From assembly GCA_036172245.1 (NCBI GenBank), contig JAYWIR010000026.1, positions 620,001 through 684,000 on the forward strand: a stretch of DNA of 64,000 bases, read 5' to 3'. Below the pieces are notes generated by a model. It worked only from the letters and a program-made list of their open reading frames with translations. It did not search any database and had not been told where the DNA came from. This document shows, piece after piece, positions 3,560 through 60,594 of the stretch (the stretch's first letter is position 1; each line of letters starts with the position of its first letter). The DNA comes from Raillietiella orientalis (lineage: Eukaryota). Both the position numbers and the translations under genes were made by a program.

Positions 3560-3833
3560 AAGTGTGTGTGTGTGTGTGTGTGTCGACGCTGAACGACGCG
3601 TTACTCGCGTGGAAGCGATCGCCCGCAGGGCTGAAGCCCTGAGACGTGACACACTCGTCGCGAAACGGCGATTGCTCACCCCGGAACCCACAGGTTCTGC
3701 ACCCGGGGAGGAGCACTCGATTACGTGCAGCACAGTTGAGGCCGGTGGCGACTGCGCCCTCCAGCTTGTCGTGCTACTTACTGTCCGCTCGCCAAGTGAG
3801 GCGAGCACCACGGCCTTGCTTTCCCAGCCGTGA
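1849..3833 (+). pseudogene. ORF1 of element B (gag-like, two CCHC zinc knuckles), frameshifted by a low-complexity insert at about 3510-3583
   Basis: CEQCGKDGHRIKEC and CRYCKDFGHEIKKC. The C-terminus continues in ORF 3564..3833, homologous to 31141..31740. Confidence 0.9.
3513..3583. repeat. Compound low-complexity tract: C-run, T-run, A-run, (GT)n
   Basis: Directly visible, and absent at the homologous position of the relative near 31490. Confidence 0.95.
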
Positions 3834-6800
3834 TGAGGGCAATCGCGTCTCCTCGTCGTGTTGTTGGGACGTCTTGAAACTTCAACGGGCTCCAACACGA
3901 GGAGAAGAGGCGACTAGTGGCTGACACTCTGCGCGCCTTCTACTTGACGCTCCTGCAGGAGATTCACAGCATCTCCGAAGAGCAGGCTGCCGAAATCGAA
4001 CGGCGCGCGGGCGGAACGCTACTTTATAGGTGCGGCGTTGCACGTACGTGCGGCGTCGCTTTCCTCGTGCGAGGAACTTTGGCGGGAGCGGTGCGCAGCG
4101 TTCGTTTCGACACGGACGGCCGAGTGGGACAGCTTGTACTCAAGTGGTCCGACTCGATCGACCTTGTCGTAACCAACGTGTACGCGCCGAGCGGTGCTGG
4201 ACGATGGGCCGAAAGGATTGAGGTCTTCGGTACCCTTCAAGGCCAGTGGCTCACTCGATCTCACCCTACTGTGGCCCATCTCATTGCGGGGGACTTTAAC
4301 GTCCACCTGCTTTCCGAGAATATATCCCACAAAAGGGAAAAGTTGCTAGCGGAAGAGATGTGCGCGTCCGTGCACGCGTGCAACTTGTTCGCTAGCGACC
4401 CTGTTATGGCAGCAACGCCGGACCACGTATACCTTGATGAACACTTGCTCTGTCGAGTGGGTCGGAGAGGTCCCGTGCTGTCCGTGCTTTCAGACCACAA
4501 CAGGCTCGAGTTCGAGTTGCTCCCGCCAGGCAAGGGGCCTCCAAACTGTTTTTGGAGGATGCCGGCAGACTGGCTAAGCCACCCGGAGGCGGCTGAGCAT
4601 CTTCGCCAGTACCTCCTCGGCTGTGCCATAAGTGAGCTCGAGGACTGGGACGATCTGAAAAGATCGGTCCGCGAGTTCTGCTGCCGGTTTCCCTTGCACC
4701 AGCTTCCGCGCGACTTCGGAGAGGGCGTAGCCAACAGCAGAGATTTTCTGCAGGCCCGCTCCTTTTCCAGGCGCGCGGACGTTGGTCGATTATCCGAGTA
4801 CAAGGCCAAGGCCGAGCGCCAGGTCTGGCAGTCAGGGGCGACAGTTCTGCTCGACGACCAGGACCGCGAATGCTCGGCTCCAGCCGACGTGCGACGGATA
4901 GTCAGGCGCTATTACTCTTCTCTGTATGCAGAGGCACCGACGGAACGCAGCCTCTCCCGGCTGCTTCTGCCGATTGATGCACCTGTTGTAGACGAGGTGG
5001 ACCGCGCGCGTCTTGATGAGCCCTTCACGGCAGAGGAAATTTCCTCGGCCATCTCTTGGCTCCAAAGACGAAAAGCACCAGGCGAAGATGGGCTCCCTGC
5101 GGAATTCTTTTAGTGTTTTGCGGCGGAGCTCATCTTCCTGGTGCTCCAACTGTCGTCGCTGATGCGAGACTCGGGCGATGTCCCCGCCTCGTTTCGATCA
5201 GCGAAGGTGCGTCTACTGCCGAAAGGCGGAGATTTGCGCCAACTGAACAACTGGCGTCCGATCACATTAGTGAATTCAGTCGTCAAGTTGTTCTCGAAAC
5301 TTTGGGTGGCGCGGATGGGTAGGATCGCAAAATCCTTGGTAAGTCCGGAGCAGACGTACGCTGTTCCTGGGCGGTCCATGGACGCGAATCTCTTGTTCAT
5401 CCGCACATGGCTGCAATTGCAGCATCGTGTGGCGGTGGATCGTCGGGCGGAAGCGACGCCTTCGATCTCTCACCGACGGAGGCGCGGGACGCAAAGGGAG
5501 ACACCGGGAGCCTTGGCGGTTGCAGTCGATCTGCACAAAGCTTTCGATTGCGTGAACCAAAAGCGTCTTCTTGAGCTTTTGGAACGTCTGGGTCTTCCGG
5601 CATCCCTGTTGGCGTACTTGCGCTCCTGCTGGCGCCACGCGATTACATCCATTGTTTTCAGTGGCTGTCGCGTGTACGGCGTGCCGGTACGACGAGGAAT
5701 TAGGCAGGGTGACAGCTTAAGCCCGCTGCTTTTCAGCATCTATTTTGAATTGGTGCTGGAGGCTTACAGGCTGACGCTAGCCAACCTGCCGAGCTCCTGT
5801 CCAGGTACGCCTGCCGTGGCAGCCTATGCCGACGACCTGCTTCTCCTGTTGCCCATGTCCACCCCGACAGCGTCGCTTGAAGATTTCTTTGAGTTTATCC
5901 GTCGTGGTGCGGGCGTGAGCGTTAACAGGAGTAAGTGTATGGTTGTTCCGGTTGGTGCGACGTGGGAGGGGCAGTCCGACTGGATCGACCTGGGGATCCC
6001 CACGGGCAGGTACCTCAGGTACCTTGGCGTGCCGTTGGGCGACTTCTGCGTCTCAGAAGCGTGGTCGGACTGCCTTCGGAAGGCAGAGCGTGCACTTAGC
6101 CCGTTTTCAGGAGGCGAGTTCGTCTTGCCTGAACGGGCCTGCATCTGGAACACCTTCGTTGCCCCCCTCCTCCGCCCCCTGTTTTTTGTTTGTCCACCCC
6201 CCCAGGAAGTCAAAGTCTGGGCGCAGCGCCTTCTACGCAAAGCGTTGTGGGGCGCTGCAAGATCCCGTGTTAGACTTAAAGACTTGGTGGCGCCGCGTCA
6301 GGATGCAGGCTTGGGCATCCTCGACTTAAACAGCATCGAACTTCAGGTGCAGTTTCGCATGCTGCGGCTCTGTGCCAAGCTGTGGTGTACGCCGTGGTGC
6401 TTACCCGCACGCCTTATACTGAGGCGCTGCACGGGAAGCGAGGGACTGCTTTCGTTGCTACCCCACTTTCGGCACACCAGAATAGGGTTTGGCTTCCCGC
6501 TGAGGCAGCTGTTCTCACTGCTGGAAGCCCAAAGCTGGATCTCCTGCCGCCCCATGAACATTAATGCATGGCGGCAGGAATCTTTTTCATCGTGGGCAGC
6601 TTCCGAAGGAACGCGCCCGGAAGATCTTCGACGCCTGCGACTTCTCCTCAGTCATCAAATGGACGAAGTCATGCAGGACAAGAAGTTGTCGGATCGTCTG
6701 TCCGCCACACCACTCGCCGTAGCGCTGTCTGCCCTCAGGGCAAGCAACGACGGTTGCCTACCGGCGGAATGGGAGTTCTCCTGCAAAATAGCGGGAGTCA

Positions 6801-7405
6801 GTAAGCTCCTCGGCAGCTGGACGACAAAGGAGCTGGTGCAAGCCGCCACACCTCGGAATCGGGCGAATGGACTGCTTCGGTGGAGCGAACATTTAAGTGT
6901 GCCCCCCGGAGAGATAGTGGTTCCCCCCGTTTGTTTGGACAGCTCCGTGTTCCCCCTTAAGTGGAAACAAGATGTGCTCCTCTTTTTACATTGTGCATTT
7001 CACTGTAATAGGCAGCGAAGCATCGTTTCCGGGGGAGCTGCTTTGCCAAACTGTTTAAGGTGCGGAGAGATCGAGTCTTTTCCGCACCTTTTGCTGGACT
7101 GCGGTGACCTCCGGGAACTGTGGCGAAGGCTCACTTCGGCCATCATGCCACAAGGAGGCACTGCCATTGATGTGCTGCGGCGCTTCGTCAGCAGAAATGG
7201 ACTTTCGGTTGGCGCGATTGTCGCAACCATATGTTGCGTTCGCACCATCGTGAAGGCCCGCTACGCCCTGGAGTTGTCAACGCAGCGAAGGCAGGCTCAC
7301 CTGCTTGCAGCTCAATTCATGGAGAAGGCTTCAAGGTGGTCTCATCTTCGTGACAAGGTGAATGAGGACATCACCGGCATACATCGCCGGTTTACACACC
7401 TTTGA
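3833..7405 (+). pseudogene. ORF2 of element B (APE endonuclease, reverse transcriptase, C-terminal CCHC finger) with two in-frame stops
   Basis: One frame from ATG 3833 to TGA 7405 with stops only at 3875 and 5111. Motifs LQEIH, NVYAP, GDFN, SDH, DLHKAFD, GIRQGDSLSPLLF, YADD, YLGVP, CLRCGEIESFPHLLLDC. Confidence 0.96.
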
Positions 7406-7756
7406 GAACGGCGTAATCCGGTGACCCCTGCGACCTCTCGCCCACCCATAGCCCGTCCCCGTTCGCTCGGTAAAATTTCCGGTGCCCATGCTTTTATCCC
7501 CGTGTCTTCCAGAGCGATCCCAAAGACCCTTATCCCGTCCTCCTTATTCATTGTTTTTATTTTATTTTGGTTTCTTTGTGTTTCCCGCCCCCCCACACCG
7601 TTCAAGAAACTGTTACTCTGGCCTGCGTGCCAGCAATATTCTCTTCATTCTTGTTCTGTCGTCGGTTGGGAGTTTGGTTCCCAACTGGTTTATTTTAAAT
7701 AATTGTTTTGTGTTTATGTTACACGGAATAAACGCCCCGGCGTGACCGGGTGAGAA

Positions 7757-8515
7757 ATCTCTTGCGCTTGTTCTGCATAGATCACGTGGATCTCCTGCAG
7801 CAGCGCAAGGTCGAAGGACTCCAGAAGGGCGGCCATGTCGCGTCTCCTGCCGGCGTCTTTCATGCCGTTCACGTTCCAAACGGCGATGCGCAGACGACGG
7901 CGGGAGGAACTTCCCGGCATTACTGCTGGGAAGATTAAGGTGTGGGGGAGCCCGCCTCTTGCGAGGCGGGCGGGATGTCCATCAAGGTTTCGGCTTTCTC
8001 AGGCACCTGAGGCACCTGATCGGCCTCCACCCCCTCCATCCCCTCCGTGTCGGAGATTGGTAGTCTCTCAGGCGACGGGTCCAGCGAGTTTCCCACGCTC
8101 TTGGCACCCTCGCTTCCGGAAGCCATCTCTTCCCCTTCGACGCGAGAGACGATCTTCCTCGGCTTTGGGGACTTACGTCCAGCCTTCTTGCGGGGCGCCG
8201 TGGAAACGGAGGCTGCGCTTCCAGCCTCCACCTCGGGGCCGGAAGTGGGGGACTCCTGAGGGAACGTCGGACGCCTTACGGCCTTCTTACTAGCTTTGGT
8301 GGGGGCTGGCTGCAGCGAGGCAGCCAGCTCCTCCGCCGCTCGCGCGAAGGCTACGTCATCGATGGTGGTGTCCATGACGGACGACGCCACTGGCTCGCTC
8401 CCCTCGCTGTTGACAGAGTCAACAGAGGGGAGCTACCGACGACCAAGGTTGGTCGTCGGTAGCGGCGAGTTCTTCCTGGCAGCGTTCGATAACATCGAAA
8501 CGGGTTCCATGACGA
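7757..8515 (-). mobile_element. Element A, upstream part: ORF1 C-terminus and ORF2 start
   Basis: ORF 7714..7920(-) reads MPGSSSRRRLRIAVWNVNG...LLQEIHVIYAEQAQEI. ORF 7935..8390(-) DDVAFARAAEELAASL matches the ORF1 segment at about 26730. Confidence 0.9.
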
Positions 8516-8519
8516 CGCT

Positions 8520-10400
8520 GGACGGACGTGTTCTGTGTTGCTCCTCGAGCGCGATTCCTTCTGTCTTCTTTGGGTGTGGTGTGCCCGAGTGCGTCCACTA
8601 AGATGTCCACGGCGCCCGTGCAGGAGAAGATGGATGTGGAGGCTGCAGCCGGCAATGGACTTTCTACCCCAGATTCCCTGCCCGCCTCTGATGCTTGTGT
8701 TTCGCCACCAGCGAGAAGCTTCGCCGCCGTCGTTCAGGTCGCGGCAGCCAACGGAGCACCGCCCGACGAAGTGGAGCTGGAAGCATATGCAACCCATGGC
8801 TACAAGCGTGCTCTCTGCTATGCAGTGAGTGCTCCTATCTCCGACGGGGTCGTAGATATTCTCTGAGATGAGCTTTTGCGCGTCGGGGTCCGACAGGACG
8901 ACCTCCTGGCCGTCATGCCGGTTTACAAGTTTGGACACTGGGAGGTGCACTGCAAAGAGGCATCCCTAGTGCAGCGCCTTCTCCGCATCCCGCTAAACAT
9001 ACGCGGGAAGGAGGTCGTCCCGTCGGCCATGGACCAGTCGTTTGTGGTCCGATTGTCCGCCGTTTAGGTGGACACGCCCGATCGCGTGCTCATCGGTGCA
9101 CTTAGTGCATTCGCCACGGTGCACGCACTGTGGAGAGCAGACAGTCCGATAAAAAGGATTGCTTACCTCCACAGCGGACTTGCCATGGCGCGTGTCACTA
9201 TGGCGGATAGGAGGCAAATGCCTCCGCACTTGCAGGTGGGCGATGCGATCGTCCACCTTAAATTTGCCGGTCAGCGACCGGCTTTCGGCATTTGCGGCGC
9301 AGAGGGCCACCGTCCGTGGACGTGCCCTTCTCGCAACTGCCGCTATTGGTAGCAGCTCGGCACTTCCATTAAAGGGTGCGCTGAGCTAAAGAAAGAACGG
9401 CAGGCGAAAATCCGCCAACAATCGACCCTGTTCGCGCCGAAAAGATTCCCCGTTGTGCCACGGGGGATCTTTTCCGGGCTCGAAGAGCGGGGCCTCATCG
9501 AGTGGCAGTCCCGCAAAAACGGCGCTGTCGCTCCAGGGAAGCCACCATCCCAGACTGCTGCGCAGACGGGAAAGAAGCCACGTCGCCCTGGGGGCAAATC
9601 TCCCCCTTCGAAGCAGCCCAAGAGCGCGGACACGCACTTAACGAAGGCTCCTGGACCGTCCGCGTCCGTTTCCGGATCCGGCGGAACACCTGCGGAACCG
9701 TGCGAGGGCACGCCCGGGACTGCCTCTGAACGGCCGTCCCCCTCAAAGGCCGCGGAGAACACGCCTTCCACGCCGAAGGCACGGGCAGCGAAGGCTGCAA
9801 TAGCGCATCGCGCGACGGTGGCAATGACCGTCGTTTCGCCCGTACCGGCCAAGGAGCAGGTGCAGCGCGTAACGGGGACGGTGCCGTCTCCCGTCGCGAG
9901 AGGGCAACCCGAGCCGGCATCTCCGGACAAACAATTGAGGAAGGCGTCGGCATCCCAGGAGGGCATCCCCGACGCGCGCTGGACTCGCGTTGCCATGACG
10001 CCCACAAAGGGGAAGAAGGTTGACCCTTCAATATTCCCCATCCTTAAGGTATGTGGGAGACAGAAGCGAAGCACGCCGAAGGTGCCTACCCAGGTACGCA
10101 CTACGGCTGCGTGCTCTGTCTCTGTCGCATCGCGCGAGAGGGCGGCTGCGGAAGCCAAAGCTCCGGAAGCGGCGTCTGCGTTGGCGACTGCGGCGTCCCA
10201 CGCGCGGTCAGGGCAAGCCGCCACCTGCCGCAAAAACAAGAGAGAGGCGAAACGCCAGTCTCGTTCTCGGCATTCGGACTCCGAGGTGGAGTCCGATTGC
10301 AAGCAAAGAGTGCGCGCACCCCGGGGTAACCCGCAAGCGCGCCTGTTGCCGAAGGCGGTTCCGGCCCCCGCACGGAGCCCGAGGCGATGATCCTCGGCTC
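8520..10400 (+). mobile_element. Element C: 5' UTR and degraded ORF1, ORF2 missing
   Basis: ATG 8603. LVQRLLRIPLNIRGKEVVPSAMD, FATVHALWR and knuckle remnant GICGAEGHRPWTC are homologous to ORF1 of B. Several in-frame stops. Confidence 0.9.
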
Positions 10401-11500
10401 CAGGAGCTCATGTCAAACTGTTGGTCAAAGACGCAAGCAAGGATGTCAGTGGACAGGCACCAGAGGACCAATTGGATCGGTTAGTATTATATGGTACGGT
10501 GACCTGTTTTCTACAAGAAAATGACAGTCTGGAACTACTTAAAAGAAAGAAGACTAGTCTAGAAATACTATGCCAGCTAACAGTAGCCTCGCTGGAAGTA
10601 AAAGAGAGTAAAGTAATAAGTAAAAGTAATGGAGACAGCTCTGAATGTCATGTTGGGAAGAAAGACCTATCGAATCGAGCATATAAGATAGCCAAGGCAA
10701 TATGCTGGAAGACCGAAAGAATAATTGATTTTTTCACCATCAGTGACAACAACAGAGCATGAGAGCAGGCGGTCGCCCAACAGCTAATGACATTGTGGCT
10801 CAAAGCCGAAAACAGTAGCACCGGGAGCAAAAGGGGTGGAAATTTGTTTCTACCACCGCCGGGAACAGCACCACGACAGAAACGACTAATCAACAATATG
10901 GTCGAACTGGTGAAGATGTGGACAAGTACGAAAAATACGCACTTGTACAGCAACAATAGCGTGGAGAGAGGCAATCTGGATGTTGAGAGCGAGCGGATTA
11001 GCGAGACTCTCACTTTCAACGAGCAGGAAGAGAATAGCAAACAGGCGTGCCAAAGTTTTACTAGAATTGTTCTATCGACCCACAAAGTCGCCCTTGAGCA
11101 CAACAAAGTTTGCGTTTTCTGCCTGTATAGAGAGATGCATCCGGAAGCCCAGTTGAACCCTGCGGAGATGTTGCAAATTGGCACAAATATTGATGCCTAT
11201 GGGGCAGCCTTGGCTGCAAAACATAAGGAAGAACACGCCAAAAATGGAAACATAGATCGAGAGACAGTTGTTGAGACTTTGAAGACACAGCTTTGGGATT
11301 CTCCTGTCAAGGGGTGGCACAGAGTGAACAGTGAGAGCGACAGGTATCAGCGCGCATGTACAGAAGTTGAGACAGTCGCCACTATGATGGGAGATAATAT
11401 GCGTAGAGAGCATATAGTGAACAGTGGCACACTACACCAACAGATTTACCTACTATCACAATTGCGCAGCGTAGAAATCTTTGCAGTAAATGAGGAAGAC
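10391..11500 (+). pseudogene. Orphan intronless reading frame of about 370 codons with one internal stop; unknown product, candidate captured viral gene
   Basis: ORFs 10421..10762 and 10787..11557 share a frame. The sequence is more A-rich and lower in GC than the flanking retroelement DNA and has no retroelement motifs. Confidence 0.6.
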
Positions 11501-12650
11501 TGCCTGCGGACTGGACTACCTGGCTCCAGGAGTCCGTTTCCGCATGGGCGAAAATAAACGGCTCCAGCGAAGAGGACTTCTCCTCCCTCCGTAGAGGAAG
11601 GCACGCTGGTCAGCCACTCCAGGAGATCATATGCAACCCACGGAAACTTCTGTGGGCGTCCTTCACCCTCCTGCCCCCATGCTGCCCTCCCTCAGGGAAG
11701 TTCGGGACAGCCAACATGAGGCATCGAGGGAAGTGTCCTGCTTCATCGGAGGCAGGAATAAACTATTGAAGGCGTGGACGTCAAGGGAACTAGCGGACGC
11801 TAGTACAGCCCCCGTCCCGCCGAACGGACTTTTACGCTGGAGCGCGCTGCTCGACATACCTACGGAGAAAGTGAAGTTGCCCCCAGAGTCTTGGGTCAAA
11901 GGCACCCTTCCCCTGCAGTGGCAGGAGACGGCGTTGCTGCTGCTCCATTGGGGAATATTAAGCAGAGCATGCCTGTCTCACTAGACATCGGGGAGTGTGG
12001 ATGCCAACTGCACAGAGTGCGGGGAACGGGAGACCTTCCCCCACCTGATTCTGGAGTGTGTCGCCCTCCGAGAGATATAGGACCGACTCTGGTCGATCCT
12101 GAACATTCCGGTGGGCGACCCGAAAAACATATTCACACGCCCCCTGATGCGGGACGCCTTGCCAGCTTCCGGGTGTGTAACAGTACTTTATTGCATACGG
12201 GGAATCCTGGACTAATAGACCGCGTCAAGGAGAGAACGCAAAAGACGGAGTGCCATGCACTGGGCAGCCATTTCCTTGGAGAAGGCCTGCCTTTGGCACC
12301 GACTTCGAAAACATTCGGCGGCACTTGTTCGCATCCGAAACCGGATGCAGAGGCCTCCTCTCGGCGTACCGTGATCCCCCCCCTTTCCCCTCCCCTCCCA
12401 AACACATTGCCCCTCCCCAGTAGTTTTTCTTTTTTTGTTTTCTTTTTGGTTTTCCCGCCCCTGAGCCAGTGTGGAAGACCTAATCGGCCTGCGGGTCGCT
12501 AAGGACAACTGCCATAACAACGACAAACACAAATATGATGACCAAAAAGACCAACATTATGAACGAAAAAGTCTATATTTTGGAATTTTTTCTTTACTTA
12601 TGATTGCGAAAAAATTTTAATAATAAAAGCCCAGGCTCACTCGGATCAAC
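11500..12650 (+). mobile_element. 5'-truncated retrotransposon 3' fragment (ORF2 C-terminal region plus 3' UTR)
   Basis: WLQESV, LLRWSALL and PLQWQETALLLLHWG, plus a zinc-finger remnant. Degenerate terminal motif AATAAAAGCCCAGGCTCACTCGGAT at 12622-12646. Confidence 0.88.
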
Positions 12651-12651
12651 A

Positions 12652-12995
12652 ACCTGCGCTGGTGCTAAGCATTCCCAGCCATCGGCGTCCTTCAACCTAG
12701 TCGACCCGGATTGCTAGGTGTATCTTTCGGTCCCAGCTCTTGCTTACGCCAGTCGTCGGACGTCCTTTGCTGGAGTAGAGACGGACCAGTTTGTGAGGGA
12801 TTCACTAAGCAGAGCTAGACCCTCTGCTACCTCAATCCCTCGCAAAAAGCCGGAGGAAGACGGTTCATAAAGAACTGGTCGGACTGAGCTCTTCATTTCG
12901 TCCCAGTCAGAGAGCGTCCGAAGTTGGAATTCTCGCTGAAGCGCGCGATGTTCCGCTGCTCCTGAGAGGCTCGGCCAGTCCTCCGGCAGGAGCCA
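12652..12995 (-). mobile_element. ORF2 fragment (end of endonuclease and linker)
   Basis: Reverse strand encodes a WLLPEDWPSL...DWDEMKSSVR-like segment. The duplicate at 57371-57720 is contiguous with a longer minus-strand ORF2. Confidence 0.85.
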
Positions 12996-13199
12996 CGTTT
13001 CAGAGGGTGGACCTCTGCATTTTGTGATTTTTGTTGACTTTTGTGATTACTTTCCAGCATTCGGACCTAAGAAACCAATTGCGTCGAGGCGGTGTGCTGC
13101 TATGGCGTGTAGTGCGGTTTTCTGAACAGAGTTTGAGTGAAAGCCTAATCGTGGGTGAGCCCGGCACGGGGTGAAATATCAACAGAAGATGAATGGTAG

Positions 13200-14340
13200 T
13201 TACAAGCATTCCGGGAAGGGAAATGCAGTAAATGGAAAACTTTTCGTATTCTTATGAAAAGGGTTCTTGGAAATCGATACTCTCTTTACAAATCTTTCTT
13301 TTCCAGCCAACTCACCAACGCAGATACCATGAAAAGTGCAAGATGGGCGTGTTTCTTGCATGCGTAAGAGGTCAAGGAGAGGGGTATGAATAGCGGTTAT
13401 GGAGAATGCAGGATGAATGATGTATGTGCATTCGTGAAGGAAGAATGGTTGGTGCATTGGTATTGCATGGATATTTTCAGGGACTTACAGGTTCTGTAAG
13501 TGAAGTAGTAAGTTTGGATGAGGATCATGGCTAATTTACAAAGATCTGCTAGAAATGGATTGAGATGAGCTTTGCGTATTGCAGAGTGTAAGAATTTCGA
13601 CACATCTGCCTGGTGATGTGGTCACATGCCACTGAATCTCAGAGGCATACCCTTTGAATGATGCATATCCAGGATTCCAAAAGTAAAAGGAGGGACATGA
13701 GGTCACTGTTTTCCTTTTATAGGTATGTAGAATGGTAAGGGGGATCAATGTTGGATGCTTCAGCAAGCTTGCTTTAAAAGTGACAATGCTGGATTGCAAA
13801 AACGAAGAGCAGATGATGGGAATGCAGATCGGCAGATTTGGATTGATTTTAGATTATGATGAAAGCTAAGGCAATGAAGATGTTCATCGAAAGGGCATTG
13901 GAGGAGTCGACTTAGTTAATGCCAATGGTTTTCGATAGTGATTCGATTCTGGTTACAAGTCTGCACCTTTGTGCAGGGATAGTAAAAGTTTTGGGAAGTA
14001 AAGTTTGCATGGACGGTTGATAATGGATCCAGTAAGACAGGATATCTGGTAGAGGGTGGAGGAATGGAGCATGGACAGCGAAGAGGAGATTGTGTTTACC
14101 ATGAATTTTCTGTTTCGTGGACCGGTGTGGAGGCAGAGAAGTATGTAGAAAACGGGATTTGAAGAGCGTGATTAAATGGCAGATGGCAACTCTGGAAAAG
14201 AGAAGGACCAAAAGCCAACATGTGGGTACTATGTGTGGAATAGAATCAGTTACTTGATTGTCAAAGTTTCGGTGTTCCCACTCGACAAGGTTTGTTTCTT
14301 TGCAGTCATCTGTTTATGGTACTCATTTAGGTTGTTGTAG
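13200..14340 (-). mobile_element. Possible highly decayed Penelope-like element fragment (RT end and GIY-YIG-like)
   Basis: A DDIFI-like motif is recoverable with one frameshift near 13880, and PSCTFHGICVGE...FVKR near 13290-13350 resembles CxxCxxxYVGET..F..R. Weak evidence. Confidence 0.3.
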
Positions 14341-15589
14341 TCAAAGGGTCCACTAGAATCGAGTTGAGTGGGCACGAATCGGTGCCTCATGCTGCAGAGC
14401 ATTTTCGAAATAGAATTCCTCTTCTAGCTAAGGTGGTAGATTGTCGGATCCACAGAGACGGCATCGATCTGGATTCCAAGGAAGGGGCTAGCTCGTTAGT
14501 GCAATACGTCTTTCGACGCATTGACCATGCGATTCGTGCTGGGAAGTGGTACGAGAAGAAAAGCAATGGCGGTGAACCATTTCGTATTGTAAGTGGATTG
14601 AATAATCAGTGTCCGTGTTCCTGAATATGGGATGCAGTTCTGGCAATAACCGGGAACAACGAAGTGGAACGTTCGGAAGGGCTCCTGTGTGCAGTCTTTG
14701 AGAGCCAAAGTTGAACTCATTTTTGACTTCCGGTTGATTAATAGCGCTGCAAAGCAGAAGTCGAAATTCCGATCCATTCAGCGGATCATGCACAAGAGGA
14801 AAATCGCCTGCGCGTTCATCAAGGACAGCGTGGAAGCTTTCTTCTCTTTTGCGGCATTTGGGAACACGAGAACGTGGAAGAGTGCGTCGTGATTCCTGTC
14901 CAACGAGTTCCAGTCCAACTCGGAAAGGGACAGACTGTTCTCTGGGATGCCAACTACAGTGATGCCAGAACCCACTGAACCCCATAACCTCACTCACCAA
15001 CGCAAACAGTTGAGGGATGGGTGAACGATAGATTTCACTGCGTCCGCGAGGAGAAATCCAAGTGCATGCGGCTCGAGCGAACAACATTGACGTCTTCGTT
15101 CTGATCGAGCAGCTCTCGAAATGCAGGCAACGGATATGGGAGCCTCCGGTTTGTATTTTGAATGGAGCGCAGGGAAAACCGGAATGTTTTGGGACGCTTC
15201 CTGCCTTGAACTCCGTCATGAATCCAAGCCTGAGGCGCTGACCGTTGTGTTCACCCTCATCGGCATCGGGCAAGCTCCTATTCTTTCAAGGCCCCTCCGA
15301 CAAAACGAAGGGCTGCTCACGAATCTTTCAAGGAATGTTCCCTGCAGAGCGCTTGTCGTTACGCTAGATGTTCAAAGATCTGTGCCAGAGGAGCCCTCAT
15401 TTGAACTGCTTGACTCTTACAGCAGAGATTTCGCTCGCAGACGATGGAAGTGGTGGGCGCTCACATAAGCAGGAAGTGCGCGTGTACACACTTTTCGAAT
15501 GCATGGGGGAGAGAGTTTTTAGTAAAGGATCACGAAAATTTGCTGGTTCTCACTGAAGGAAGAAAGGAGTTACGGACGGTAAAGTATTG

Positions 15590-16600
15590 TATATGTAAGG
15601 TGGTTCGTTCCCAAACGTTCACATGGGAGCCAGAGGGCAACACAGTCCACGAGCAAGGGTGGGAAGGATTCGTGTTCCCTGCACTTGCGACCGTCTCCGG
15701 GCTCGCCCTCCCCAGCGTCCAGTGGTGTCGACGCGCGTTGCAGGGGACACCCTAGCGCAACAGCAGAAGTGACGACTTCTGCCACTCCAGGGGGCGGGCG
15801 CTACCGCTCGTGAGCACAAAGGGTCACTCTGGGCCTGCAATGGTTGTCTTCGAAGGAAACCTTGGAAGGAACCTCTTCCTTGCTTCGATTTCCACGCACA
15901 CAGAGGTGTTCTCAGACGGTGTTTTGCTCCATCTCAGACCTGAGGCCTAAAAAGGGGGCCGTCGTCGCAGTTCTTTCATTCAGTTTCTTCAACAAGCAAC
16001 CGCTTAGGGAGATACCGTCATTGACGGTACCACTGAGCATTCTGCTATGTTCACAGTCTGCGTAAATGCTAAATTTACGTGCAAGCGGGAACATCCTTCC
16101 TTACCCCCTTCAAACACACAGTTTCTTTAGAATGGTATATATACATGTCTCGCACTGCAGTGTTTTTGCGCCGGTCTTTTAACCGGGCTCGTATCCAATT
16201 TCCTTCACGTGTTCACTTGCCAGGTGGCGTGCCTTTGACCTGATAGCGCGACCGTTGACCGCATTTGGCGCAGATATGGCCACTGTCGCGTAGAACGCTT
16301 CGTCCTGCTGCTGCAGGTGTGTTTACGTGCCTAACCATATTTTATGAGGCATTGGATGGCTCATCTCTTTCGCAGCACTAGACTGTTTCACTCTGATGTA
16401 GCTCTCTGCATTGACCGGCACTGCCCGTTCTTTACTAGATGCAAGGGTGGAGGGTGTAACGTTCGCCGAGTTTTAGTGACGCAAACAGTAGAAAAACTGC
16501 CTCCAGATACACTTTAGTAGTTTGCACCTTGTCAGTCTCAACCTAAAACTTACGCTTTCCAGTAATGCGGTTTGGGGCCATCGTAGTGGTCAGCCTTTGG
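15590..16600 (-). mobile_element. Decayed ORF2 3' region remnant
   Basis: Reverse strand GVPCNARRHHWTLG matches GLPCNARRHHWTWG at about 24790, and upstream parts resemble 24050-24700. Confidence 0.8.
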
Positions 16601-25439: not shown

Positions 25440-27930
25440 GAGCGAGAGCGGACGGGTTTTTGCTTCGCTCTTGAACGTTTGTGGTTTTATTTTTTTTCTT
25501 TTTTTTCTTGGTGTGCCAGTGCATTCGGTGGTGGCTAGGCAGCAATGCCTGGGACCACCACCAATCTTAAGGAGGGGGCGACGTCTATGTCTCCCCCTGA
25601 ATCAATGGATGTGGGAGCAACCGCCCCCACAGAAGCGACACCCTTGTTAGGGAGAAGCTGGAGTTCCGTGGCTGCGGCGCCAACGCAAGCGGCTGCGGCT
25701 GAGTTAAAAGCCTACCTGGAGGAGGGGTACAATCCCCCTCTACTCTACAAGGTAGGCAACCTTTACTCCTTTGAGAGTGCACGCGCTTTCTCGAAAGCGA
25801 TGCACTCCCTCAAAGTACTACAGGAGGAGTTCTTGGCGATGACCATCAGGAGTGGTGGACAGTACGTTGAGGTGATTTGCAAAGAAGCAAGTCTTGCCCA
25901 GCGTCTGCTCCGTACACCTGTTCCTTTGGGGAATCGCCGGCTCCTCCCCATCACGGAGGATAGATCTATCGTGATCCACCTCCTCGGAATCACCTTCCGG
26001 ATGGCCGAAGAGGCTGCCCGAAATGAATTAATTAAATTTGGAACCGTCCACGCGTTGTGAAAAAGCCGACTCCGTTTTGGGAGTACGATCTGCTGAATTG
26101 CGGTATGGCTTCCGCGCGCATCACGGTCCGCGAGGGTTGCTCCCTACCTAACAAGCTGCAGGTCAACGGCGAACCCGTTGACATCTGGTATGTCGGTAAG
26201 CCGCATTTCTGCGGGCATTGCAGCACTTCAGGTCACCTGAAAAAAAGGTGCCCCCACTTGCAGTGCAAGCCATGCAAGCAACCCGGGCACACTTCCAGTG
26301 TGCCCTCAAAATGAAGTCCGCGTCGCGTTTGCACGGAATGCGAAGAAGCGCGCGGCGAAAAAAAGAAGAGTTCAGGCAGCCCGAGAGAGAGCCGCCGCTC
26401 GAAAAACAACTATCGTGCCCCAGGTGAAGGTCAGCTCCGAGATCTTGGAAAACTCGGACAAGGTAGAGAACGGCCAGGAACCTGAATGGCAGGTAGTAAA
26501 ATCCAAGAGGCAGAAAAGCTTCAAGGAACCAAAAAAAAATGTCGCGAAACGCAGCGAGAATTTGCCGCGTCGCGAAAAGATCAAACGCTGCTCTGTCGTC
26601 ATCAAGCGCATTCCTGCGGTCGAACAGAGCGCCAAAACCGAACTCGTCGCTGCCGACTCAACCGTCCGGCAATGTAAACACGAAGGCTATCGATCTTGCG
26701 GTGGCGTCCGTCTTCGCACGGATGCTCGATGACGTCGCCTTTGAGCGAGCGGCGGAGCTCGCTGCGTCCCTACGTCCCCTTAAGGTCGTGAAAAAGGCCT
26801 TAAGACGTCGGAACCCCAAGAAGTCGGAGGATACGGACTGTGCCGCGGAGGGAGAAAGCATAGCCAGCGGCATCGCGGTCCCCCCCAGAAGCCCAGTCAA
26901 ACTTTCGCGGCGGAGCTTACTCCCCTGGTACATTAGCTCACCCTTGCTGATTCGCGAGACAGGTGACGTTCCCACTTCGTTTCGTACAGCAAAGGTGCGG
27001 TTCCTCCCTAATGGAGGAGGCCTGAGGAGCATTAGCAACTGGCGTCCCGTCACAATAGTGAATGTGGACGCCAAGTTGGTAGCTAAGGTTTGGGCAGAGC
27101 GGCTGGGACGGGTTGCCAACGCTTTCATCAGTCTGGAGCAGACATATGCTGTTCCTGGGCGGAGCATGGAGGCGAACCTGTTCCACGCTTCCACATGGTT
27201 AGAGCTCCAACAAGAAGCTTATTGAACAACCGGAATTCCGGTGCGTACGTCGGTGAGACGGCATGGACGGGTGGGGAAGGGAGCCCTTGCGGTCGCTGTC
27301 GACTTGTGTAAAGCATTCGACAGCGTCGACCAGAATCTCCTGCTGGAGCTTCTGGAACGCTTGGGCTTCCCGGCCTCTTTGTTGGCCTACTTGCGCACCA
27401 GCTGGACAGATGCGCTCATTAACGTCTTTTTCAGCGGCCATACCGTGTACCTGAAGTCCCTGGGCGACCCGTTGGTGAATTCTGCCTTTCAGAAGCCTGG
27501 TCAGGTCGTCTCCAAAAGTTAGAACTGGCAATTGGCCCGTTTCTGTAAGGGAACTTCCTTCTGCCGGAACAGGTACCGGTGTGGAACGCGTTCGCAGCCC
27601 CAAACCTCCGCCCCCTACTTTTTGTTTGCCCCGTCCACGTAGTAATAAAGAGGACGAAGGACCTCCTCCGCATCGCCCTTTGGCGCAAGGGCAGGTTCCT
27701 AGTCCCGTTGAAGGTCTTGTGCGCTACGCGTCGGGACCAGGTTTCGGCGAAGGATTCAGAAATGACGGCGCGTACCTACACTCCCGTCCTCACTCCAAGA
27801 ATTCCGACGTCCGACGCCTGGCGGAATAGAAAGCTTGGGCTGCGAGACAGACCTGGCAGTCCGGGTCGACCAACTTTCTGGACTTCCAGGACCAAGAGCG
27901 CTCAGCCGCAATACAGGCTCTTCAACCGGG
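25440..27930 (+). mobile_element. Internally deleted and rearranged copy: 5' UTR and ORF1 fused at about 26900 to RT pieces
   Basis: ATG 25545, CGHCSTSGHLKKRC, then a jump to NWRPVTIVNVDAK, DLCKAFD and WNAFAAP. Confidence 0.88.
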
Positions 27931-40861: not shown

Positions 40862-41754
40862 GTCAATTGGAGATACACTCAACGGATTATTATTGTCTGC
40901 TCTGGGCATTGAGCCCGCAGTGTAGCACACACGCCATCGTATGTGTCAGTCAAGACAGATGCATTAAAGACGCCAATCTCTTTCATATTTTGAATGCTTA
41001 ATCCATGGCTACCATTCCCCCAACAGAAACAGGAGGTGATTCAGAGGTGTGGCTCTGCTTGTGGACAGTGCACTGTTCACATGGCACATTCGGAATGAGC
41101 ATCCGTCCACAGACGCTACAATCGATTCCAAGTTGGCACCGTATGCCATTAGCACTGTGCTGAACCGTGGGTGCTGCAGCGTGAACGCGCTCCGCCGGAT
41201 GGACTGAACATCCGCCTTGACAGAATGTCCCTGAGATTCTCCCAAAGCGGATGTTCAATAAGGGACAGTTGCTTAATTTTCGTAATCTCTTAATCACAGT
41301 TTGCAAAATGCATGTACATTTGATTCGCCACGGGTTCACCTATTGAGTCCTCATCTCAACTTGGGTCTGCAGGAATGAAACGAAGCAGTGGCCTCACTTG
41401 GAAAATACCGACCATCTCTGCCTGGATTGCACGGAAAACACCTTGGAATTTTGTCCTCATGGAGGATCCTTTCCTGTTTCTGTACCGTTTGCTGACTATT
41501 TTGCCGGTATAGCAGATTTCACTGCAGAATTCATGGAGGAAGGTAGTAGTTCAGTAAGCATGGGTAATCGAAAAGAATGCTATGCAATTACCGAGTTTTT
41601 GCAATGCATCTATAATGGTTACCTGTTAGTCATGCCTCATTTATCAAGAGAATTGTATAAAAAAGTATCTATCCTAAAGAAAAATCTGAAAAAAGTAGAG
41701 CAAACTTGTTATACTATTTCATATATGGCTCGGAACTCCCCAGCTGCATTTTAG
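40862..41754 (+). pseudogene. Translin-family (TRAX-like) gene remnant, probably intron-containing
   Basis: DYFAGIADFTAEFM...EFLQCIYNGY...KKVSILKKNLKKVEQTCYTI matches the TRAX C-terminus. GLQE*NEAV at 41364 matches GLQEYVEAV, and a possible upstream exon reads EIHSTDYYCLLWALSP. Confidence 0.7.
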
Positions 41755-55399: not shown

Positions 55400-57720
55400 G
55401 AGACGCGTTGGGGTCAGGGCATCACGTCAGCAGAGGCGCCGTCTATTGGTTTTTGGGTCGCCTGCCGGTAGTTTCAGAAAGGACAAGAGTCGATACGAAA
55501 AATCACGGAAGGCGACGCAGTGCAATACGAGATGCGGGAAGGTTTCCTTTTCACCGCTCTCTGCACAACTTGCAACCAAACTCCCTACTGTCCTGTGGGG
55601 GAGGCGCGCTCTGCATAGCATTCCCCGATGCCGGAAGAATAGAAACGCCGTCTCTTGCCACTCTATTGAAAGTGTGCCGCTGTTGCAATATGCCGTGGTC
55701 ACTCCGCCTCCTCCGGTTGTGTTCCGAGCAGCTCGACCCAGGTGATGAGCTCTTTAGGGGCGACACTCGTGGTCATAGCGTCCATTACCTTCCGAGTTTT
55801 TTACGCCTTCATTTGTTTTTTCCTCTCTCCAACGAGGCAGGACACTTACCGCGATGCTCGTTCGTTTCCGTCTGCAGCGTTTTAGAGGATCTGGGGGGAT
55901 GAAGGAGGGCCAAGGCTATTTGCGTGGGTTGTTTACCATCCATTGCAGGGGCTATCCAGTGTGAGGTTCCTTGTCGGGTGCAGGCGGATTCCACCTCGCT
56001 CGAGCCCTCGATTTTTCTCCATGCACAACCTGACCTCCTGAAGACAGACAGTACAGTTCGCGTGGAGGCAGTAGATTCACGTGTTGTCTTTCATGGGAGC
56101 AACCGTGTGGTGCAGCTGATGGCCGCAATAGCCCAGGCTGCTCTCGTATGCAACGGCGATCGAAGGCAATCCTTCGCTGCCTTTCGCTCGCGAGGGCTCT
56201 TGCGGGTTCGCACCGTGACATAGTCCGCAACTCCACCGCAAGGGCGAGTTTTTGAAACTATGGCTGTCGTTCCATGTACCACAGAGTTAGGAGGCCCAAT
56301 CCTCCATCCCTGCATAAAACGCACAAGTCTTTAAACCGGATACCGGTCCTCGCTGTGCGCCACAGGGCTTTCCTCAGGAGATCGACGATTTGCATTTTTG
56401 TTACGGGTGGGGCGGGGCAAACAAAAGTGTTGGGCAATGGAGGGAGTTTGCAGCCGGAGCAGGAGGTCATCGGCAAAGGCCGACGCGGCAGGCGTGCCGA
56501 AACGCGAGCTCGCCAGAGTTACCAGAGTCTCCCTGTGTGCTCTCAGCGCCAACTCAAAGTAGACTCTGAAGAGCAGGCGGCACAGCCTGCACCCCTGCCT
56601 TATGCCGTGCCGAACCGACGTGGCGCACACGTGCTGGCTGCTGAAACAAATATTAATGAGCGTGTGGCGCCAGCAAAAGCGCAGATTGGCGCGAATGACG
56701 GCTGGAAATCCCATGCGTTTCAAGAGTTTCAGAGGAAGTTCCTGGTCGACGCAGGGGAATGCTTTACGCAAATCGCCCGCGACTGCAAGGGCTCCTCCTC
56801 CTTGGCCTTCCCCTCCTTGGTCAAAGGAAACTCGGGATCCTCTCGACCTGTCTGACCTTCGCGCTATAGCAACTGCCACTATAGTTCGTGAGGGAACCGC
56901 GTAATTGGGCTCCGGACTGAACACAGATTCCGCCACCCGTCCTAGTCGCTCATCCCACAAATTGGCATGCAACTTCCCGTCCGCATTCAGAAGGATGATG
57001 GGCCGCCAGTTGCCTACGTTGCGTAAGTCTCCCCCTTTCGGGAGGAGACGTATTCTAGCCTACAGGGACGAGTTGGGAACGTCCCCTCGTTCGCGGATCA
57101 GCATGGCTAGCTTGAGCACCAGGGGAACCAGCTCTGCCGCGAAGCACTGGTGAAACTCCGCGGGCAGACCGTCTATCCCTGGTGCCTTTCGTTTTTTCTG
57201 CTTTCCGATGGCGGAGATGATCTCCGCCATCGAGAAAGGCTTCTGGAGGTGGTTCCTAATCTCATCCCTCAACGCTGAGGCGCCATCTGGCAGCAACCGC
57301 TGCGCAAAGACGCGCTCGGCTCCTGCTCTCGTGTAAAGTGAGGAGTAAAAAAACACGCTAGATGCGGTTTACCTGCGCTGGGGCTAAGCATTCCCAGCCA
57401 TCGGCGTCCTTCAGCCTAGTCGACCCGGATTGCTAGGTGTATCTTTTGGCTCCAGCTCTTGCTTACGCCAGTCGTCGGACGTCCTTTGCTGGAGTAGAGA
57501 CGGACCAGTTTGTGAGGGATTCACTAAGCAGAGCTAGACCCTCTGCTACCTCAATCCCTCGCAAAAAGCCGGAGGAAGACGGTTCATAAAGAACTGGTCG
57601 GACTGAGCTCTTCATTTCGTCCCAGTCAGAGAGCGTCCGAAGTTGGAATTCTCGCTGAAGCGCGCGATGTTCCGCTGCTCCTGAGAGGCTCGGCCAGTCC
57701 TCCGGCAGGAGCCACGTTTC
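55400..57720 (-). mobile_element. Decayed ORF2 (linker, RT, C-terminal finger)
   Basis: KAPGIDGLPAEF, GDLRKAFP, GIRQG, AFADDLLL and CAESGEKETFPHLVLHC. Confidence 0.92.
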
Positions 57721-60594
57721 AGAGGGTGGACCTCTGCATTTTGTGATTTTTGTTGACTTTTGTGATTACTTTCCAGCATTCGGACCTAAGAAACCAATTG
57801 CGTCGAGGCGGTGTGCTGCTATGGCGTGTAGTGCGGTTTTCTGAACAGAGTTTGAGTGAAAGCCTAATCGTGGGTGAGCCCGGCACGGGGTGAAATATCA
57901 ACAGAAGATGAATGGTAGTTACAAGCATTCCGGGAAGGGAAATGCAGTAAATGGAAAAATTTTCGTATTCTTATGAAAAGGGTTCTTGAAAATCGATACT
58001 CTCTTTACAAATCTTTCTTTTCCAGGCAACTCACCAACGCAGATACCCTAAAAAGTGCAAGATGGGGGTGTTTCTTGCATGCGTAAGAGGTCAAGGAGAA
58101 TGGCGGTTATGGAGAATGCAGGATGAATGATGTATGTGCATTCGTGAAGGAAGAATGGTTGGTGCATTGGTATTGCATGGATATTTTCAGGTTCTTACAG
58201 GTTCTGTAAGTGAAGTAGTAAGTTTGGATGAGGACCATGGCTAATTTACAAAGATCTGCTAGAAATGGATTGAGATGAGCTTTGCGTATTGCAGAGTGTA
58301 AGAATTTCGACACATATGCCTGGTGATGTGGTCACATGCCACTGAATCTCAGAGGCATACCCTTTGAATGATGCATATCCAGGATTCCAAAAGTAAAAGG
58401 AGGGACATGAGGTCACTGTTTTCCTTTTATAGGTATGTAGAATGGTAAGGGGGATCAATGTTGGATGCTTCAGCAAGCTTGCTTTGAAAGTGACAATGCT
58501 GGATTGCAAAAACGAAGAGCAGATGATGGGAATGCAGATCGGCAGATTTGGATTGATTTTAGATTATGATGAAAGCTAAGGCAATGAAGATGTTCATCGA
58601 AAGGGCATTGGAGGAGTCGACTTAGTTAATGCCAATGGTTTTCGATAGTGATTCGATTCTGGTTACAAGTCTGCACCTTTGTGCAGGGATAGTAAAAGTT
58701 TTGGGAACTAAAGTTTGCATGGACGGTTGATAATGGATCCAGTAAAACAGAATATCTGGTAGAGGGTGGAGGAATGGAGCATGGATAGCGAAGAGGAGAT
58801 TGTGTTTACCATGAATTTTCTGTATCGTGGACCGGTGTGGAGCCATAGAAGAATGAACAAAACGGGATGTGAAGAGCGTGATTAGATGGCAGATGGCAAC
58901 TCTGGAAAAGAGAAGGACCAAAAGCCAACATGTGGGTACTATGTGTGAAATAGAATCAGTTACTTGATTGTCAAAGTTTCGGTGTTCCCACTCGACAAGG
59001 TTTGTTTCTTTGCAGTCATCTGTTTATGGTACTCATTTAGGTTGTTGAAGTCAAAGGTTTCACTAGGATCGAGTTGAGTGGGCACGAATCTGTGCCTCAT
59101 GCTGCAGAGCATTTTCGAAATAGAATTCCTCGTCTAGCTAAGGTGGTAGATTGCCGGATCCACAGAGAGGGCATCGATCTGGATTCCAAGGAAGGGGCTA
59201 GCTCGTTAGTGCAATACGTCTTTCGACGCATTGACCATGCGATTCGTGCTGGAAAGTGGTACGAGAAGAAAAGCAATGGCGGTGAACCATTTCGTATTGT
59301 AAGTGGATTGAATAATCAGTGTCCGTGTTCCTGAATATGGGATGCAGTTCTGGCGGTAACTGGGAACAACGAAGTGGAACGTTCGGAAGGGCTCCTGTGT
59401 GCAGTCTTTGAGAGCCAAAGTTGAACTCATTTTTGATTTCTGGTTGATTAATAGCGCTGCAAAGCAGAAGTCGAAATTCCGATCCATTCAGCGGATCATG
59501 CACAAGAGGAAAATCGCCTGCGCGTTCATCAAGGACAGCGTGGAAGCTTTCTTCCCTTTTGCGGCATTTGGGAACACGAGAACGTGGAAGAGTGCGTCGT
59601 GATTCCTGTCCAACGAGTTCCAGTCCAACTCGGAAAGGGACAGACTGTTCTCTGGGATGCCAACTACAGTGATGCCAGAACCCACTGAACCCCATAACCT
59701 CACTCACCAACGCAAACAGTTGAGGGATGGGTGAACGATAGATTTCACTGCGTCCGCGAGGAGAAATCCCAGTGCATGCGGCTCGAGAGAACAACGTTGA
59801 CGTCTTCGTTCTGATCGAGCAGCTCTCGAAATGCAGGCAACGGAGATGGGAGCCTCCGGTTTGTATTTTGAATGGAGCGCAGGGAAAACTGGAATGTTTT
59901 GGGACGCTTCCTGCCTTGAACTCCGTCATGAATCCAAGCCTGAGGCGCTGACCGTTGTGTTCACCCTCATCGACATCGGGCAAGCTCCTATTCTTTCAAG
60001 GCCCCTCCGACAAAACGAAGGGCTGCTCACGAATCTTTCAAGGAATGTTCCCTGCAGGGCGCTTGTCGTTACGCTAGATGTTCAAAGATCTGTGCCAGAG
60101 GAGCCCTCATTTGAACTGCTTAACTCTTACAGCAGAAATTTCGCTCGCAGACGATGGAAGTGGTGGGCGTTCACATAAGCAGGAAGTGCGCGTGTACACA
60201 CTTTTCGAATGCATGGGGGAGAGAGTTTTTAGTAAAGGATCACGAAAATTTGCTGCTTCTCACTGAAGGAAGAAAGGAGTTACGGACGGTAAGGTATTCT
60301 ATATGTAAGGTGGTTCGTTCCCAAACGTTCCCATGGGAGCCAGAGGGCAACACAGTCCACGAGCAAGAGTGGGAAGGATTCGTGTTCCCTGCACTTGCGA
60401 CCGTCTCCGGGCTCGCCCTCCCCAGCGTCCAGTGGTGTCGACGCGCGTGGCAGGGGACACCCTAGCGCAACAGCAGAAGTGACGACTTCTGCCACTCCAG
60501 GGGGCGGGCGCTGCCGCTCATGAGCACAAAGGGTCACTCTGGGCCTGCAATGGTTTTCTTCGAAGGAAACCTTGGAAGGAACCTCTTCCTTGCT
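57371..60594 (+). repeat. Segmental duplication X, copy 2
   Basis: Near-identical to 12652-15884. Confidence 0.97.

Follow-up and report, generated by a model that had tools for sequence, protein, structure and literature searches.

A putative capsid-gene fragment of a lebotivirus-like dsRNA virus set between copies of two LINE families in an animal genome

Introduction

Lebotiviruses have an unsegmented dsRNA genome of ~7 kb, in which the capsid ORF is placed 5' and the RdRp ORF 3'. According to the available text of the source, the Lebotiviridae are insect-associated (bioRxiv 10.1101/2024.08.27.609913). Toti-like EVEs (ToEVEs) are as a class ordinary and widespread in arthropods: the accessible part of PMC10636211 counts 5686 of them across 593 arthropod genomes out of 1188 and describes one as co-opted, and its supplements list ToEVEs by species, so that the copies described here might be among them. 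As far as the available text goes, ants carry coat-protein EVEs near Leptopilina boulardi toti-like virus (LbTV) and Shuangao virus (PMC6540820), and isopods carry toti-like EVEs near Artivirus (PMC4573495). In the accessible portions of the respective papers, L1 action is invoked for bornavirus EVEs (EBLN), made from nucleoprotein mRNA and with flanks consistent with L1 (PMC8554740), and R1 LINEs are described as having acquired a viral SF1 helicase (PMC4686597). In the literature we searched, which mostly covered journals outside subscription, no paper on the joints between toti-like EVEs and LINEs was found.

Here we analyze a locus at which a viral fragment is joined on both sides to LINE sequence. 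It lies in a stretch of 64,000 nucleotides, referred to as the window, for which a sequence-only reading had proposed an RNA-virus gene endogenised among retrotransposons. That core idea was upheld, with the capsid gene of a lebotivirus-like dsRNA virus as the likely donor.

Results

The open frame and its limits

Reading frame +2 is open over 10391-11557 with a TGA at 10760-10762 as the sole interruption, and over 10406-11502 the remaining two forward frames carry 23 and 26 stops. When the latter segment was shuffled (n = 2000), the best of the six frames always contained at least four stops. Its A content is 34.4%, versus 19.8% upstream and 24.2% downstream. Comparison with a longer copy of the gene in the same genome (C6, see below) places the foreign part at 10406/7-11502, i.e. 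366 codons with one stop, and not at 10391-11500 as the sequence-only reading had it. Other features given in that reading agree with our results: the frame is A-rich, has a single internal TGA, is intronless (the ORF being colinear with viral proteins), lies on the same strand as both flanking LINE fragments and ends against a 5'-truncated retroelement, with a sharp edge at 11502/11503 in comparison with 30 copies of that element. The following features were assigned:

10406..11502, + strand: endogenous fragment of the capsid/ORF1 gene of a Lebotiviridae-like dsRNA virus, 366 codons, assigned by homology and equivalent to residues 306-671 of the C6 copy
10760..10762, + strand: in-frame stop inside a conserved block, from the ORF reading and alignments with relatives
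11111..11260, + strand: CxxC...H...H..NGN..R motif, from an alignment of 15 capsid proteins

The TGA at 10760-10762 would represent damage suffered after integration. Recoding of this codon was rejected, the stop being found in one copy and absent from the paralogs. The fragment is located in a 3.0-Mb contig, has LINE sequence on both sides, contains one stop and covers part of a gene; it thus combines the host-chromosomal flanks and the decay by which a ToEVE is recognized.

Viral identity of the fragment

The protein encoded in the window is 52% identical over 367 aa to residues 306-671 of the C6 copy, which is ~1450 codons long. An exhaustive phmmer search with the 903-aa open frame of C6 returned 42 proteins at E<=1e-3 among 1.84 billion, many of them 1370-1735 aa long. 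We looked up 20 of the 42. Ten had an informative name (nine toti-like virus proteins and one Hermetia illucens genome protein); of the other ten, nine were unnamed and one bore an uninformative tag. The named matches include coat or capsid proteins of Nilaparvata lugens toti-like virus 1, Solenopsis midden virus and Totiviridae sp. 2. The window protein itself aligned directly with all three relatives tested (E 2e-11, 7e-11 and 9e-7), the first of which is ORF1 of Linepithema humile toti-like virus 1, a Lebotivirus. In the taxonomy, Lebotivirus holds LbTV, Linepithema humile toti-like virus 1, Solenopsis midden virus, Shuangao virus and Hubei toti-like virus 19, and the fragment is homologous to the ORF1/capsid protein of its members. 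The motif CxxC...H...H..NGN..R is invariant in 15 of 15 aligned capsid proteins, the window included, and is a possible metal site.

An AlphaFold model of the window protein, built on the alignment of its relatives, reached a mean pLDDT of 67.6. A fold search with it gave seven matches at E<=1e-3, all to toti-like or unnamed viral proteins, with the LbTV coat protein on top (9.5e-8) and TM-scores of at most 0.47. This match is not independent of the sequence match, because the model was built from the alignment of the same relatives. Foldseek found nothing in the PDB at E<=1e-3, so the capsid label is without confirmation from a solved structure. Several searches came back empty: the PDB by sequence (window protein, E<=10), Pfam for a capsid family (window pieces, genomic paralogs and 25 relatives), a phage tblastn, an IMG/VR scan (two pattern matches, none confirmed) and a word-indexed search of proteins, in which none of 7997 candidates matched the C6 frame. 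The ESM Atlas returned unnamed fungal clusters only, with a recognition of 1340, below the useful level, and was disregarded.

From these homologies we estimate a probability of about 95% that the fragment is a non-functional endogenous piece of a capsid gene, derived from a lebotivirus-like dsRNA virus that had infected the lineage of this animal. The faint resemblance to orthomyxovirus PB2 suggested by the sequence-only reading did not hold up, with no Pfam PB2 family at E<=0.1, no match among PDB sequences at E<=10 and no PB2 among the listed fold matches, and we rejected that candidate. Nor is the ORF an orphan, since it has paralogs in its own genome as well as viral relatives. A match to a host-gene exon or to a domain of a known transposon was looked for and not found.

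Public labels for the large ORF are inconsistent, two entries calling it 'RdRp complex'. In Corcyphos virus 2 it is a 760-aa protein, labelled 'poly-capsid', that carries the RdRp domain, and for this reason the labels of that virus look swapped; those of Linepithema humile toti-like virus 1 probably are as well.

Further viral copies in the same genome

We searched the genome to which the window belongs (210 Mb, 491 contigs). At the DNA level one paralog was found, 68% identical, and protein searches confirmed 6 matches of 9 candidates and 7 of 8. As a lower bound, at least nine capsid loci are present (window, C6, C13, C94, C142, C40, C12, C19 and C5), in two clades, so the search for other genomic copies that had been proposed for the ORF yielded paralogs at eight further loci:

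L011:997-5330: C6 copy, clade I, ~1450 codons with stops and a frameshift; 903-aa open frame
L015:3475-8441: C142 copy, clade I, in three separate pieces; 883-aa open frame
L018:2317-3714: C94 copy, listed with clade I and placed in no tree
L021:2841-4177: C13 copy, clade I, decayed
L031:5919-7277: C12 copy, second clade
L030:5592-6883, minus strand: C40 copy, second clade
L033:4663-5598, minus strand: C19 copy, second clade
L034:4889-5359, minus strand: C5 copy, second clade

The C6, C142, C94 and C13 copies are broken by stops, by shifts of frame or by internal deletions. The C12 and C40 copies form a duplicate pair (98% aa identity) with AT-rich flanks and, in the library used, no LINE nearby. 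Trees were quick IQ-TREE runs, the first (26 rows) built without the C94 piece and relatives shorter than 900 aa, the second (18 rows) also leaving out 12 relatives that lack the anchor motif. The window, C6, C13 and C142 form one long-branched clade (clade I, SH-aLRT 99), and these four copies showed no supported grouping with any named virus; C12/C40, C19 and C5 form the second (SH-aLRT 97). Between the window and C6, pN is 0.30 and pS 0.81, from which we conclude that coding constraint acted before integration and that the two derive from distinct viruses. Their origin as post-integration duplicates was rejected, synonymous sites being saturated. The window fragment is from a divergent viral lineage.

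A PF02123 search of the genome gave a single RdRp fragment (1 of 1 candidate):

C26 ~904,100-905,410 (L063:4096-5413; also L036): Lebotivirus-like RdRp fragment, ~1.3 kb, inside a LINE-B-like ORF2 at ~905 kb of the contig

It has 54 protein matches and is 48-49% identical to the RdRps of Solenopsis midden (49%), Corcyphos 2 and Shuangao viruses. It stood on a long branch, in a 14-row clade (SH-aLRT 96) that also held these viruses, of a quick tree that took in 22 of the 54 matches and no outgroup from another family. Being a separate locus, it may come from another virus than the window capsid piece. For several of the capsid relatives and RdRp matches the source contigs are equal in length, 6.8-7.2 kb (7035, 6885, 7079, 7220, 6910 and 6766), which suggests that both proteins are encoded on the same contigs. 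The HSP70 of the host is of animal type, with crustaceans first at 83-86% and insects, molluscs and vertebrates within a few points (among named matches of ordinary length). The host is probably an arthropod and probably not an insect.

Two LINE families flank the fragment

The features adjoining the viral piece are as follows:

8504..10401, + strand: copy of the high-copy LINE family A, 5' part (ORF1); 40 of 143 candidate copies scored
10340..10341, + strand: site of a 25-nt deletion in family-A ORF1, from a pairwise alignment with one intact copy; the tblastn frame ends at 10342
10387..10392, + strand: ATG-ATC codons of family-A ORF1, of which 'TGA 10388' is an out-of-frame reading
10396..10406, + strand: 11-nt word GGCTCCAGGAG at the 5' joint, equal to LINE-B sequence 11522-11532
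11503..12652, + strand: LINE family-B copy, 3' 1.15 kb (post-RT ORF2 and 3' UTR), ending after AATAATAAAA; 40 of 1395 candidates scored
11522..11532, + strand: second copy of the 11-nt word, in native LINE-B 20-30 nt past the 3' joint
12653..15884, no strand assigned: target DNA after the LINE-B 3' end, starting CCTGCG, with a 97.7% duplicate at 57371-60594

The scored copies of either family match at 82-89%, apart from the window itself. Family-A ORF1 is cut in the window ~40 codons before its stop, and the remaining ~3.9 kb of the family is missing here; in intact copies ORF1 extends 37 codons beyond the position matching 10410. Family-A copies that are intact 3.9 kb past the joint (L051, L056, L061) show no match to the downstream LINE-B, and the two families share 65-68% identity over one ORF2 stretch only. 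The ORF1 and ORF2 pieces thus belong to two different LINE families and not to one element, and substitution of the viral piece for the ORF2 of a single LINE was rejected on that ground.

The sequence-only reading had put the viral ORF in frame with ORF1, separated from it by a TGA at 10388. These letters are part of ATG-ATC inside ORF1, ~44 codons before the true ORF1 stop of intact copies, and the 25-nt deletion at ~10340 shifted the last ~16 ORF1 codons into the viral frame. The in-frame link between ORF1 and virus is therefore accidental, and read-through or fusion with ORF1 was rejected. On the other side, the viral piece is out of frame with LINE-B ORF2.

The duplicate at 57371-60594 has no LINE-B copy, and its empty site reads TTTA^CCTG. 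Among 25 LINE-B copies with a located 3' end, four have 11-14-nt duplications, all at A^CC; the end of the window copy at TTTA^CCTG agrees with these four, as for a target of the endonuclease type. LINE family B (L065-L093) ends in GTGAAAAA, with CC next in most copies, as in a target-biased LINE.

Several further observations concern this LINE nest. Segmental duplications link 12652-15884 with 57371-60594 (97.7%) and 3588-8429 with C26 ~8.6-3.8 kb before the window (93%). A perfect 15-bp inverted repeat lies at 8432-8463, near the head-to-head meeting of LINE A with the element upstream, and the 8001-8500 flank is common to several other family-A copies, which suggests a fixed target. An open frame at 26500-27222 (+) has a weak match of its residues 7-53, short of the cut-off (E 1.1e-4), to PF25660, a capsid family of filamentous dsRNA viruses, and matches RT at its end; this is possibly another virus-LINE fusion, possibly chance. 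A Translin-like frame at 41347-41751 (+; PF01997, E 3e-15), with a degenerate-looking start and in AT-rich DNA, is an exon or a pseudogene.

The joints

At the 3' joint, identity to 30 LINE-B copies begins abruptly at 11503 with at most 1 nt of overlap. At the 5' joint, the 11-nt word is of the LINE-B type: 24 of 24 family-A readings (some from overlapping loci) differ from it and have a longer C-run. Among 20000 random draws of an A and a B copy, an 11-mer was shared in 0.045%, and the CCTGCG at the viral 3' joint ranks within the top 47 of 2592 LINE-B positions for the B target profile, both tests having been chosen after seeing the sequence. A B-type 11-mer at this joint (~0.0005 by chance) suggests that LINE-B formerly lay on either side of the viral piece. 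The same letters would also arise if the LINE-A copy had lost one C. The 3' joint agrees only partly with the B target site, and the base before CCTGCG in intact LINE-B is C, not A as at the four sites with duplications, which counts against capture by an enzyme of the LINE-B type. No target-site duplication surrounds the viral unit, the 3' flank not recurring at the 5' joint, which is a further point against that mechanism. The viral piece has no poly(A) tail, ending inside the coding sequence.

The RdRp insert gave the cleanest virus-LINE joint among those examined. It splits a LINE-B-like copy into colinear halves (library positions ...1399 / 1397...). The site, A^CC, resembles those that LINE-B itself targets, TGA stands at both ends, and TGACC is in common with a conserved viral motif. 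Its joint is ~100 nt upstream of the window joint position in LINE-B ORF2, and the two loci are 275 kb apart. A recognizable LINE of the library used adjoins four of the nine capsid loci (window, C6, C13, C19), in a LINE-rich genome, which also weighs against such a capture. At C13 and C19 a 5'-truncated LINE immediately follows the viral piece in the same orientation; at C6 it follows the antisense strand, as would be possible with a template of dsRNA. None of seven other EVE loci has a clear flanking repeat, the longest being 5-9 nt, again a point against that mechanism.

Discussion

Proposed capture by a LINE enzyme

The mechanism has to be inferred, because no target-site duplication is present. 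We lean towards a model in which an endonuclease/RT of the LINE-B type copied an internal 1.1-kb stretch of viral plus-strand RNA that came to be flanked by LINE-B. The RT might have left LINE-B RNA at 11503, copied viral RNA and re-entered LINE-B RNA ~30 nt back, in an out-and-back template switch; alternatively, it might have used a nick within a LINE-B copy in the DNA for priming on viral RNA, leaving a ~30-nt duplication. Both routes would fit the joints, although a 30-nt duplication is unusually long. The upstream LINE-B arm would then have been lost, at integration or later, by joining to the neighbouring LINE-A ORF1 via a shared GGCTCC, leaving 11 nt only of upstream LINE-B, after which the viral copy would have decayed to its one stop. 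The RdRp insert would be the intact form of an event of this kind. Both it and the window locus are attached to one LINE family, in one part of its ORF2. This suggests a non-LTR RT and not LTR elements, the ones usually invoked for such viral integration in insects. A template-switch capture, as proposed earlier, is plausible; a simple picture of ORF1, virus and ORF2 of one element is wrong.

Of the alternatives, the one that survives best, though we consider it unlikely, is a one-way switch, the version nearest to the sequence-only reading. Here priming by the LINE-B RT at A^CCTG (12653) would have been followed by synthesis of 1.15 kb of cDNA from LINE-B RNA and a single jump to viral RNA, the cDNA end being joined to LINE-A DNA with loss of the target. 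It is consistent with the canonical LINE-B 3' end and its empty-site duplicate at 57371, with the sharp 3' joint, with the CTCA common to family A and the viral start, and with the 5'-truncated LINEs behind the viral pieces of C13, C19 and C6. However, it would leave the B-type 11-mer at the 5' joint to a chance C loss, and a search of the sequence ahead of the insert, within the window and in the preceding 10 kb, gave no high-identity match to the upstream target DNA it implies.

Still less probable is capture at the DNA level, with viral cDNA made by any RT and end-joined into a break in the LINE nest, and later deletions uniting LINE A, virus and LINE B. Here the LINE neighbours would reflect local density, as the nested LINEs and segmental duplications of the region, the five of nine capsid loci with no LINE of the library at their ends, and the missing target-site duplication and poly(A) would allow; yet both toti-like inserts of C26 join the same LINE family at CC-starting sites ~100 nt apart in ORF2, and the LINE halves around the RdRp insert are colinear.

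That the ORF is a host gene, was domesticated from a virus or is an accessory domain of a transposon is very improbable and for the window copy largely refuted: long open frames do persist at C6 (903 aa) and C142 (883 aa), and the available text of PMC10636211 reports a co-opted toti-like EVE in planthoppers, but the window copy is an internal fragment with one stop, no start context of its own and no Pfam family, is missing from intact LINE-A and LINE-B copies, and was not amplified as part of an element, because its closest DNA paralog is only 68% identical.

Under capture by a LINE-B-type enzyme, the joints probably keep a readable trace of how the enzyme of a jumping gene copied the viral piece. 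They bear on the entry of non-retroviral RNA into germlines and are informative, not decisive. A wider reading, possible but quite tentative, is that in this genome the LINEs targeting LINEs trap RNA viruses time and again, with an RT that hops onto viral dsRNA of either strand and back to its own RNA, so that an undescribed deep lebotivirus-like lineage of a non-insect arthropod would be archived piecewise in LINE coding sequence. If so, out-and-back switching by a germline non-LTR RT would become countable at nucleotide resolution. As for a present role of the window copy, that of a candidate small-RNA template is the sole plausible one.

Comparison with known systems

In a host that is probably no insect, the copies document at least two lebotivirus-like lineages hitherto unsampled, of which one has a long branch and no sequenced relative close to it. 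With the Lebotiviridae (Ghabrivirales, Betatotivirineae) they share a homologous large ORF1/coat protein (1370-1735 aa in full-length relatives), the CxxC-H-H-NGN motif and, in the same genome, an RdRp fragment 48-49% identical to the Solenopsis midden and Shuangao RdRps. Unlike members of that family, they are integrated fragments and no virus, with ~22-26% identity in the window region.

EBLNs have a poly(A) tail and a TSD. The available account of them shares with our locus the copying of non-retroviral RNA into a genome by a LINE enzyme; unlike an EBLN, the window has an internal viral piece with neither poly(A) nor TSD, fused to LINE coding sequence. As in the R1 LINEs with an SF1 helicase, in the accessible description of these, viral coding sequence is fused into a LINE, but the R1 helicase is a stable part of ORF2 across the family, whereas the window holds a single dead chimera, out of frame with ORF2. 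The crustacean toti-like EVEs in the available part of PMC4573495 belong to a different toti-like lineage from the present copies. Like known ToEVEs as described in the available parts of the papers, those copies are capsid- or RdRp-derived fragments with stops and frameshifts, several per genome; in the same parts of those papers, virus-LINE joints are not resolved at the nucleotide level, as they are here.
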